Shown here piece by piece: positions 133 to 1,962 of a DNA stretch of 31,393 nt (the stretch's first letter is position 1; the number at the start of each line of letters is the position of its first letter). The stretch is from a virus (Duplodnaviria; Heunggongvirae; Uroviricota; Caudoviricetes). The notes under the pieces were generated by a model. The model saw only the letters and a list, made by a program, of their open reading frames with translations, made no database searches and was not told the origin of the DNA. The stretch spans positions 1 to 31,393 of the IMG/VR virus record IMGVR_UViG_2778261541_000008, one strand, 5' to 3'. Position numbers and translations under genes: made by a program.

Positions 133-1962
133 TCATCCGTCGTTGACATCAAACTTAAAGTCATGACCGGAATAGTTCGTGAACCCCTCTGTATTGGGGA
201 GCGGTTCATACGGCGGATCGCAAAAGATGACATCTCCTTCTCCGACAGCTTCAATCACCGCTGCAAAATCACCGCATACAAACTCAGACCGCCCTTCCGC
301 ACCGAGGAAGGCTTCCATCTCCTGTAATGGGAAATACGGAGTCTTATACTTCCCATAACCGACATTGAACTCACCGGCCTGGTTGTAACGCGTCAATCCG
401 TTAAAACAATGTCGGTTCAGGAACAAAAACGCCGCTGCGCGATGTAAATCATCATAGACTTGTTTGTTAAACGCATTCCGTACTGCCAAGTATCCCTCCT
501 GGGTGTTGTAGTCCAGGAAAAAACGATGTGCCAGAGTGATAAGTGAATGCTCCTCGCGTTGCAGAGTCTTGTAAAAGTTAATCAGGTCAGCATTCACATC
601 ATTTAGCAGATTTTCCTGGTATCCGGCATTCATGAAGACAGCTCCGCCACCGACGAAAGGTTCAATCAGGCGCTTCCCTTCTGGCAAATAGCGAAATATT
701 TGTTCCAGAACACCAAATTTTCCACCAGCCCATTTGAATATGGACCGTTCGAATTCTGCCGCTGGTTTAACTTTTCGCTCTTTTGTTTCACTCCCTTCAT
801 TCTGCCGACATGCAGCCTTGGTAATCCGATCGCCAATCCAGCGCATTACTGGTATCGCCATACTATTGCCGATCGCTTTGTAACGCGGTCCGTCAGCTGC
901 AAGCATCACGGCCTCTTCTTCGTTTAAATCAGGATAGTTATTGCGAAGGTATGCCAGTTCATCTGAAGAAACTTTTTTACGCTTTCCCGTAGGGATCAAC
1001 GTATGCCAATCAGGAAAACCTTGCAGCCTTTCACATTCGACAGGGGTAAGACGGCGCATTCTACCGTCGCCGAGCAATACAATTGGTGCTTCATGGTTAC
1101 ATGTCAAAGTTGGTGCCGAATTATCGGTTTTTATCTCAGCCCCTCCTTGCCCATGTGCCATGGCAATTATGTTTGTATCATCGCAAGTTCTGATAGCGAT
1201 GTTTGAAGTATATCTGGTAGTTTCCTTCCCCTCGCCTCTGCTCGGCGCAATATTCCGGCGCACGCCTTCGAACTCAAAAAGTACCGTTGCGGGATCGAGA
1301 TCTGTTCGAGCACTTGCGACAACAAACACGCGTCGGCGTCGTTGTGCCACTCCGAAGTATTGGGCATCAAGGATTCTCCAGGCCACCTTTCGCTGCGGTC
1401 CATAAATACAACCACACTGCGGCCACTTTGGAGCATGGCAACCGGTTTTGCCATCCCACCGCCAGAACGCGTTACTTTTTCCTGATTCAGGTCGATCACC
1501 TGGTTCAAATGGCGCATCTTCTCCAGCCAATCCGGCAAGGAAACATCCGAAGGCGTTATCTGCCGATGACAGGACTCCTGGGACATTTTCCCAGACGATA
1601 ACTGTCGGTTTGAGGAAGGACTCAGACCGTTTGTCGTCAATTGCATTTGCAAGCTCCACATACTTCAAAGTTAGCGCGCCGCGTTCATCATCAAGCCCAC
1701 CACGTAAGCCCGCGATACTGAATGCCTGACAAGGCGTACCCCCGACGAGCACATCAGGGGATTCGATTTCCCCAGCCAGGACTTTTTTGGCAAGTTTTGT
1801 CATGTCGCCAAGGTTGGCGACATGGGGCCAGCGGTGCGCAAGAACGGCAGATGGAAAAGGCTCGATTTCAGCAAACCACGCAGGACGCATACCCAACGGT
1901 TCCCAGGCAATACTCGCGGCTTCAATTCCACTGCAAACAGATCCATAGCACAGCTCTTTCAC
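133..1962 (-). CDS. dmt: Fused DNA methyltransferase: N-terminal C5-cytosine MTase domain plus C-terminal Dam-like N6-adenine MTase module that ends prematurely
   Basis: 609-aa ORF. N-terminal half has C5-MTase motifs in canonical order: motif I-like [22 protein letters not shown] (PCQ), VWENVPGV (ENV), [19 protein letters not shown]-terminal part aligns with E. coli Dam from its N-terminus ([45 protein letters not shown]) but stops about 26 aa after DPPY. GTG start overlaps the rdgC stop (GTGA). Position matches P1 dmt. Confidence 0.85.

Follow-up and report, generated by a model that had tools for sequence, protein, structure and literature searches.

The dmt gene of this P1/P7-like IncY phage-plasmid is, with high probability, interrupted by IS100, which transposed into codon 605 as a simple insertion flanked by a 6-bp target duplication (TCAAAC). 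The window, that is, the whole stretch of DNA that was analysed, is the entire 31,393-bp draft contig NLNJ01000050.1 of assembly GCA_002229695.1. It carries the uhr-hrdC-dmt operon, repA with oriR, parAB, and structural genes, which is P1/P7-type phage-plasmid content. The window shows the right end of IS100 only, the body and the left junction of the element lying outside it.

In the proposed mechanism, IS100 (IS21 family, 1954 bp) would have entered dmt at codon 605 and duplicated the target TCAAAC. The dmt reading frame would then run into the right end of the IS, take up five foreign residues (DVNDG), and meet a TGA 13-16 nt inside the element. The outcome would be a 609-residue protein with a whole C5-cytosine module and a Dam module short of its last 68 residues. 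The displaced 3' end of dmt, with its stop codon and the overlapping Oban/Pban, would lie intact beyond the IS, and the ban operon should be unaffected.

The IS100 end and its junction with dmt

A megablast search of window bases 1-2000 against phage genomes divides the sequence into two parts. Over bases 149-2000 it has ~97-98% identity to the dam/dmt-hrdC region of P7, P1, and their relatives, and bases 1-148/149 match IS100/IS100kyp copies in many unrelated phages at 98-99.3%; all matches stop at 148/149. The IS100 matches to bases 1-148 are annotated as 'IS21-like element IS100kyp family helper ATPase IstB'. Aligned base by base with the complete IS100 of phage 520873, the window gives the junction as ...GTTGACA/TCAAACTT, the slash marking the boundary. 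The window tracks IS100 as far as ...CATCCGTCGTTGACA, which ends at base 148, and P1-type DNA starts with TCAAACTTAAAG... at base 149. The features of this end are as follows.

1-148, plus strand: right-hand end of IS100 (IS21 family), 148 bp, truncated where the contig stops; base 148 is the last base of the terminus ...GTTGACA
2-82, plus strand: 3' end of istB (IS100 helper ATPase), last 26 codons and TAA at 80-82; the annotated IstB CDS of phage 520873 ends at its locus position 3082, equivalent to window base 82, and the frame is read directly
119-148, plus strand: right terminal inverted repeat of IS100, from which the chimeric ORF takes its last five codons and its stop
149-154, no strand: right-hand copy of the probable target-site duplication TCAAAC; the same hexamer precedes the IS100 left end in IMGVR_UViG_2778261541_000006 (locus L009, 10648-10653)

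The reference IS100 in phage 520873 is 1954 bp long, runs from TGTCACG... to ...GTTGACA with TG...CA ends, and is flanked by a 6-bp duplication, TGATGG. The copy at the edge of the window resembles it in its istB end, its TG...CA termini, and the length of its probable target duplication; it differs in two SNPs private to it in the 3' end of istB, A56 (typically G) and T64 (typically A). The terminal repeats of IS100 are imperfect, the reverse complement of the right end agreeing with the left end at 21 of 30 positions.

The initial annotation found no Dam-like sequence in nt 1-132, and this is borne out, the bases in question being IS100. It also placed a deletion or recombination breakpoint near nt 130-160. 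A breakpoint is indeed present there, at 148/149, but it is not a deletion; the event is very probably IS100 transposition, with the 3' end of dmt intact beyond the IS. The same annotation proposed looking for a mobile-element end and for the displaced Dam C-terminus, and both are found, the former as the IS100 end and the latter as a remnant on the contig IMGVR_UViG_2778261541_000006. Within the 31,393-bp window itself, neither a second IS100 end nor the missing 3' end of dmt occurs elsewhere; the sole match is a 25-bp operator-operator match between Oban and Odmt. A frameshift was considered as the cause of the dmt truncation and is ruled out, the downstream sequence being a different element (IS100).

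The truncated Dmt protein

As the initial annotation described, a fused C5/Dam reading frame ends at a TGA at 133-135. Its count of ~26 residues after DPPY does not hold: the ORF runs on for 24 residues, of which 19 are native and five (DVNDG) come from IS100. The ORF and its two modules are laid out as follows.

133-1962, minus strand: chimeric dmt::IS100 ORF of 609 residues, consisting of native Dmt residues 1-604 and DVNDG, with TGA at 133-135
149-1962, minus strand: native part of dmt (P7 dam type), codons 1-604 and 2 nt of codon 605; homology begins exactly at 149
847-1941, minus strand: C5-cytosine methylase module (PF00145), length and motifs as in the orthologues
1912-1941, minus strand: C5 motif I
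1717-1740, minus strand: C5 motif IV, GTPCQAFS
1576-1590, minus strand: C5 motif VI, ENVPG
1324-1344, minus strand: C5 motif VIII, QRRRRVF
847-870, minus strand: C5 motif X, GNSMAIPV
149-735, minus strand: truncated Dam (D12 class) module, with nothing after F604
718-735, minus strand: KWAGGK of the Dam module
634-663, minus strand: AdoMet-binding motif I (FxGxG) of the Dam module, residues 434-443
208-219, minus strand: catalytic motif IV, DPPY, of the Dam module, residues 582-585

Codon 605 spans the junction and changes from GAA (Glu) to GAT (Asp); it is followed by the IS-encoded VNDG and by the TGA of the IS terminal repeat. The product therefore lacks 68 residues (605-672 of the 672-residue orthologue), EEQKRLVSLLTDAHRRGAKVLITNSGAPNIRELYQDSGFRVEPLFARRSVSCKGDTRGVAHDVI.ILL. 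The initial annotation put the missing part of the Dam core at ~75 residues, which is right in E. coli Dam numbering (~204-278).

Pfam assigns the N-terminal part of the 609-residue protein to PF00145 (C5 DNA methylase, E=6e-37) and residues 411-603 to PF02086 (D12/Dam class, E=1e-48). The PF02086 match starts at profile position 1 and stops at 203 of 253; in the intact orthologue it extends over 1-243. The segment after DPPY (motifs V-VIII) is incomplete. In methylases of the alpha group, the segment after motif IV holds motifs V-VIII and corresponds to helix D and strands beta5-beta7 of the seven-stranded Rossmann-like sheet. We take the 68 residues missing from the window Dmt to be this post-motif-IV segment (helix D, beta5-beta7, motifs V-VIII). 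When the protein is matched to structures of E. coli Dam (2g1p, 4gbe, 4rtj, and others; E=1e-58), the truncation point corresponds to Dam residue ~203 of 278 and the missing part is ~204-278. The Dam module of the 609-residue product, deprived of its conserved C-terminal third, is very probably dead; the loss of this segment of the conserved D12 domain should abolish both folding and activity.

In contrast to the Dam module, the C5-cytosine module is complete in the product, as judged from its motifs and length. All five C5 motifs (I, IV PCQ, VI ENV, VIII QxRxR, and X GNS) are present in order and at the same positions as in P1 and P7. Over native residues 1-604, four substitutions set the protein apart from pSBF45b Dmt: V573A is in the Dam module, and A177S, A351V, and V352A lie within the C5 module or adjoin it. 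The earlier reading of the C5 module as intact thus stands.

The possibility that the protein is a natural short Dmt isoform, with a Dam module active without the C-terminal 68 residues, has a next to negligible probability. It could appeal to the presence of motif I and DPPY, and to nothing further. IS100 supplies the last five residues together with the stop codon, all orthologues continue past residue 604, and the absent segment belongs to the conserved D12 domain and is part of the solved structure of Dam. Alignment to P1 Dmt and E. coli Dam likewise upholds the truncation, the orthologues continuing past F604. Nor do orthologues end at the same position, a finding that the initial annotation named as one that would undo its reading: intact ones have 672 or 754 residues, and 467 of 469 PLSDB records are uninterrupted. 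On the same grounds, a normal gene end at residue 609 is ruled out, with both the stop and the last residues being IS-borne.

The closest full-length relatives of the insertion allele are of the P7 type. P7 Dam (AAQ07538.1, 672 aa) is encoded by the same gene, downstream of hrdC, with 97.6% nucleotide identity to the window dmt. The best plasmid match is pSBF45b (IncY, 95 kb), whose Dmt (WP_208769502.1, 672 aa) has 99.7% nucleotide identity from base 149 on. Both proteins share the C5 target-recognition variant of the window Dmt, and its length up to residue 604; the IS100 insertion at codon 605 is peculiar to the window copy. P1 Dmt (AAQ14041.1, 754 aa) is a bifunctional orthologue (C5 and Dam) with an identical Dam module and C-terminus, but it is full length. 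It is annotated as GATC-methylating; the C5 activity appears in its record only as 'perhaps at C5 cytosine'. The variable region of its C5 module (~residues 241-380) is different from, and longer than, that of the window Dmt.

The variable region of the window Dmt lies at about 1050-1240 (residues ~241-300), between C5 motifs VIII and IX. It is of the P7/pSBF45b type, is unrelated to the P1 version, and is 82 residues shorter. The C5 modules of the P1-type and P7-type Dmt probably recognise different targets.

Two known dmt alleles resemble the interrupted one. The P1 dmt(del)MB laboratory mutant (AF234173.1, 'Dmt, incomplete', 638 aa) keeps the C5 module and loses the Dam module from DPPY to the C-terminus. 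It arose by a 319-bp engineered deletion with a frameshift and has lost DPPY itself, whereas the window allele arises from an IS insertion and keeps DPPY. The mutant was propagated and sequenced, and is thus a precedent for genomes without the C-terminal part of Dam. In the natural P1-like plasmid pYLMB49b (NZ_CP073955.1; 2279-3500 corresponds to about window base 130), an IS likewise sits in the 3' end of dmt, and the two insertion sites are ~19 bp apart. Its insertion differs in being ISVsa5 (IS4 family), at another site, in a P1-type dmt. With IS100 here and ISVsa5 in pYLMB49b, at least two natural plasmids thus carry an IS that disrupts the Dam C-terminus of dmt.

A longer Dmt variant of 1013 residues (P0010, P0015, P0016, and P0019) falls in the same 90%-identity cluster as the window Dmt and is found on at least 44 contigs. 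It carries a 341-residue insertion exactly at the catalytic Pro-Cys of C5 motif IV, GGTP-[CFTAGH...LAGAYVGDGY...FLQGYLDTDGT...AVVHN]-CQAFS. The insertion scores above the Pfam cut-offs for Hint_2 and LAGLIDADG_3, and looks like an intein that includes a homing endonuclease, placed within the C5 module of a P1-like Dmt.

The reciprocal junction and the distribution of the allele

The dmt ORF appears to end in nothing because the short-read contig stops inside the multicopy IS100. To find the other side, the 2.9 million viral contigs of IMG/VR were scanned with the predicted reciprocal junction, made up of the dmt remnant, the duplicated bases, and the IS100 left end. Exactly one contig matches, the 60,273-bp P1-like contig IMGVR_UViG_2778261541_000006, 55 bp from its end. 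There the dmt remnant and TCAAAC are followed by the IS100 left end (TCAAAC/TGTCACGAACGG...). The end of the contig reads ...GCGTTTTTGCTCTTCAAAC/TGTCACGAACGGTGCAATAG..., continues for 55 bp of IS100, and terminates in ...TCAAACTGTCACGAACGG. TCAAAC thus adjoins IS100 on both contigs, at 149-154 of the window and, on the 60,273-bp contig, at 10648-10653 of locus L009.

Joined in silico, the remnant and window bases 155-1962 give an uninterrupted ORF of 672 residues with five differences from pSBF45b Dmt. The dmt stop codon and the bivalent C1 operator/promoter of the ban operon are preserved on the remnant side, and are seen there only.

We infer that the window and the 60,273-bp contig derive from one isolate or molecule, because the site, the orientation, and the duplication match and the match is unique among the collections searched. 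The sizes point the same way, since 60.3 kb, 31.4 kb, the rest of IS100, and the invertible segment together approximate a P1-like plasmid with one IS. In addition, both contig ends fit a k=55 assembly graph. The stretch of IS100 at the end of the 60,273-bp contig is 55 bp long, and the first base of the window lies exactly 55 bp to the left of the SNP at base 56. The position of the window start suggests such a k=55 graph together with other copies of IS100 in the genome.

The other end of the window is also repetitive. Several complete P1-like contigs contain its last 43 bases (31351-31393) twice, in opposite orientations and ~4.5 kb apart; these bases probably belong to the inverted repeat of the invertible tail-fibre (C) segment. 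Searched against IMG/VR, these 43 bases reveal no overlap between the right end of the window and the 60,273-bp contig. Both window ends thus lie at repeats and are ordinary repeat-induced assembly breaks.

Two alternatives bear on this pair of junctions. An IS100-mediated rearrangement between two copies (a cointegrate, an inversion, or an adjacent deletion) would leave the 3' end of dmt elsewhere or lost. It draws on the unseen left side, the window stopping inside IS100, on the multicopy state of IS100 in the genome implied by the assembly break, and on the link of the 60,273-bp contig to the isolate, which is made by inference. We consider such a rearrangement quite unlikely. The reciprocal junction has the same TCAAAC and the right IS orientation and is the sole match in 2.9 million viral contigs, the two halves of dmt rebuild a perfect ORF, and the combined lengths given above come close to the size of a P1-like plasmid with a single IS.

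The junction might otherwise be an assembly artefact, IS100 reads having been wrongly joined to an intact dmt at a chimeric contig end. The junction does lie 148 bp from the end of a contig in a short-read draft. However, the join falls exactly at the IS100 terminus (CA) and not at an arbitrary point, a matching target duplication is present at the reciprocal junction, and the identical 609-residue product occurs in Logan, a second independent assembly source. An artefact is, on this evidence, very improbable, and a simple insertion of IS100 into dmt remains the preferred reading.

The interruption is rare. A 501-bp probe spanning the insertion site, taken from an intact plasmid, is uninterrupted in 467 of the 469 PLSDB records that it matches. 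The exact IS100-dmt junction has no match in PLSDB, in 5,426 complete E. coli genomes, in IMG/VR, or in the GTDB representative genomes. When the missing 68 residues are searched against a collection of 5.8 billion proteins, six unrelated fragments are recovered (contig-edge partials and frameshift variants) and no IS-fused remnant ORF. The 90%-identity protein cluster of the window Dmt has 991 members; among the 15 listed, nine have 672 residues, four have 1013, and one is a 669-residue partial. The exact 609-residue form is found on a single NCBI contig and, as the same sequence, in Logan, with no other source for it. The allele is apparently unique. All of its components are already known, namely IS100, P1/P7 Dmt, and the disruption of phage-plasmid genes by IS elements. 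The 609-residue ORF is an ordinary insertion pseudogene at the edge of a draft contig, and is no new kind of enzyme.

Operon context and consequences of the truncation

The genes and sites upstream of dmt and at the origin are as follows.

1959-2864, minus strand: hrdC (RdgC family), directly upstream of dmt in the same operon; from the annotation of P7 and pSBF45b, with PF04381 on the called 301-residue gene
2857-3141, minus strand: uhr / upf64.0, first gene of the uhr-hrdC-dmt operon; from the annotation of P7 and P1
3213-3229, minus strand: C1 repressor operator Odmt (Op68), ATTGCTCTAATAAATAT; position from the annotation of P1/P7, overlapping Pdmt (~3184-3213)
5487-5541, no strand: P1-type oriR, cluster of five GATC with two DnaA boxes on one side and five 19-bp iterons on the other; the densest GATC in the window
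5741-6601, no strand assigned: repA, downstream of the iterons

The synteny Odmt/Pdmt-uhr-hrdC-dmt is conserved, and the window is collinear with pSBF45b from base 149. Identity is 98.9% over the first collinear block (149-11849), and three variable gaps interrupt the collinearity. Window segments 14680-16506, 20523-21215, 25502-26127, and ~11835-11849 do not align to pSBF45b, the window being elsewhere collinear with it at 97-99%. The unaligned segments are accessory or variable and include part of a gene for a 1130-residue transglycosylase. The ORF of 490 residues at 11202-12674 shows a ~100-bp length difference from pSBF45b.

In the annotation of P1, Pdmt, controlled by the C1 operator Odmt, drives transcription of the uhr-hrdC-dmt operon. 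Odmt is conserved at window 3213-3229, and dmt should therefore be repressed, or silent, in the plasmid state. Odmt (window 3215-3239) also cross-matches Oban (L002 2791-2815), the operator of ban, which overlaps the usual stop codon of dmt. With Odmt upstream and Oban at its stop codon, an intact dmt is thus bracketed by two C1-controlled promoters.

The GATC cluster that the initial annotation saw at the P1-type origin is present, with five GATC within 5487-5541. The importance that it gave to the loss of Dam for this origin is overstated, dmt being behind a C1-repressed promoter and oriR being served by the host Dam. Mini-P1 replicons without dmt depend on the host Dam, which serves the plasmid origin. 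Abeles and Austin in 1987 reportedly set the methylation requirement of P1 oriR with miniplasmids lacking dmt in dam hosts. Under the proposed mechanism, the element would provide no phage-encoded GATC methylation. In a Dam-positive enterobacterial host, the host Dam would methylate oriR and pac, so that plasmid upkeep would be unaffected and lytic growth would be affected at most mildly.

The documented role of P1 Dmt, as given in a passage of PMC12707154 that cites Sternberg & Coulby 1990, is the methylation of pac for packaging, and the enzyme is essential only in Dam-negative hosts. The phenotype of the truncation in a Dam-positive Escherichia host is likely to be mild.

For annotation, the 609-residue ORF is to be recorded as a dmt pseudogene disrupted by IS100, not as a new short Dam or a novel fusion, and NLNJ01000050.1 and the contig with the ban side of the element should be linked across IS100. 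There is a slight chance that the insertion is a naturally selected separation-of-function allele, in which C5-cytosine methylation is kept and the phage-plasmid's own Dam is shed. If so, the allele could make packaging fully dependent on the host Dam, or could mark a move toward a domesticated existence as a plasmid only. Plasmid replication from oriR should stay unaffected by the truncation of dmt. The P1-like phage-plasmid described here is probably unable to methylate its own pac and would rely on the host Dam for packaging, which would matter only in Dam-deficient hosts.
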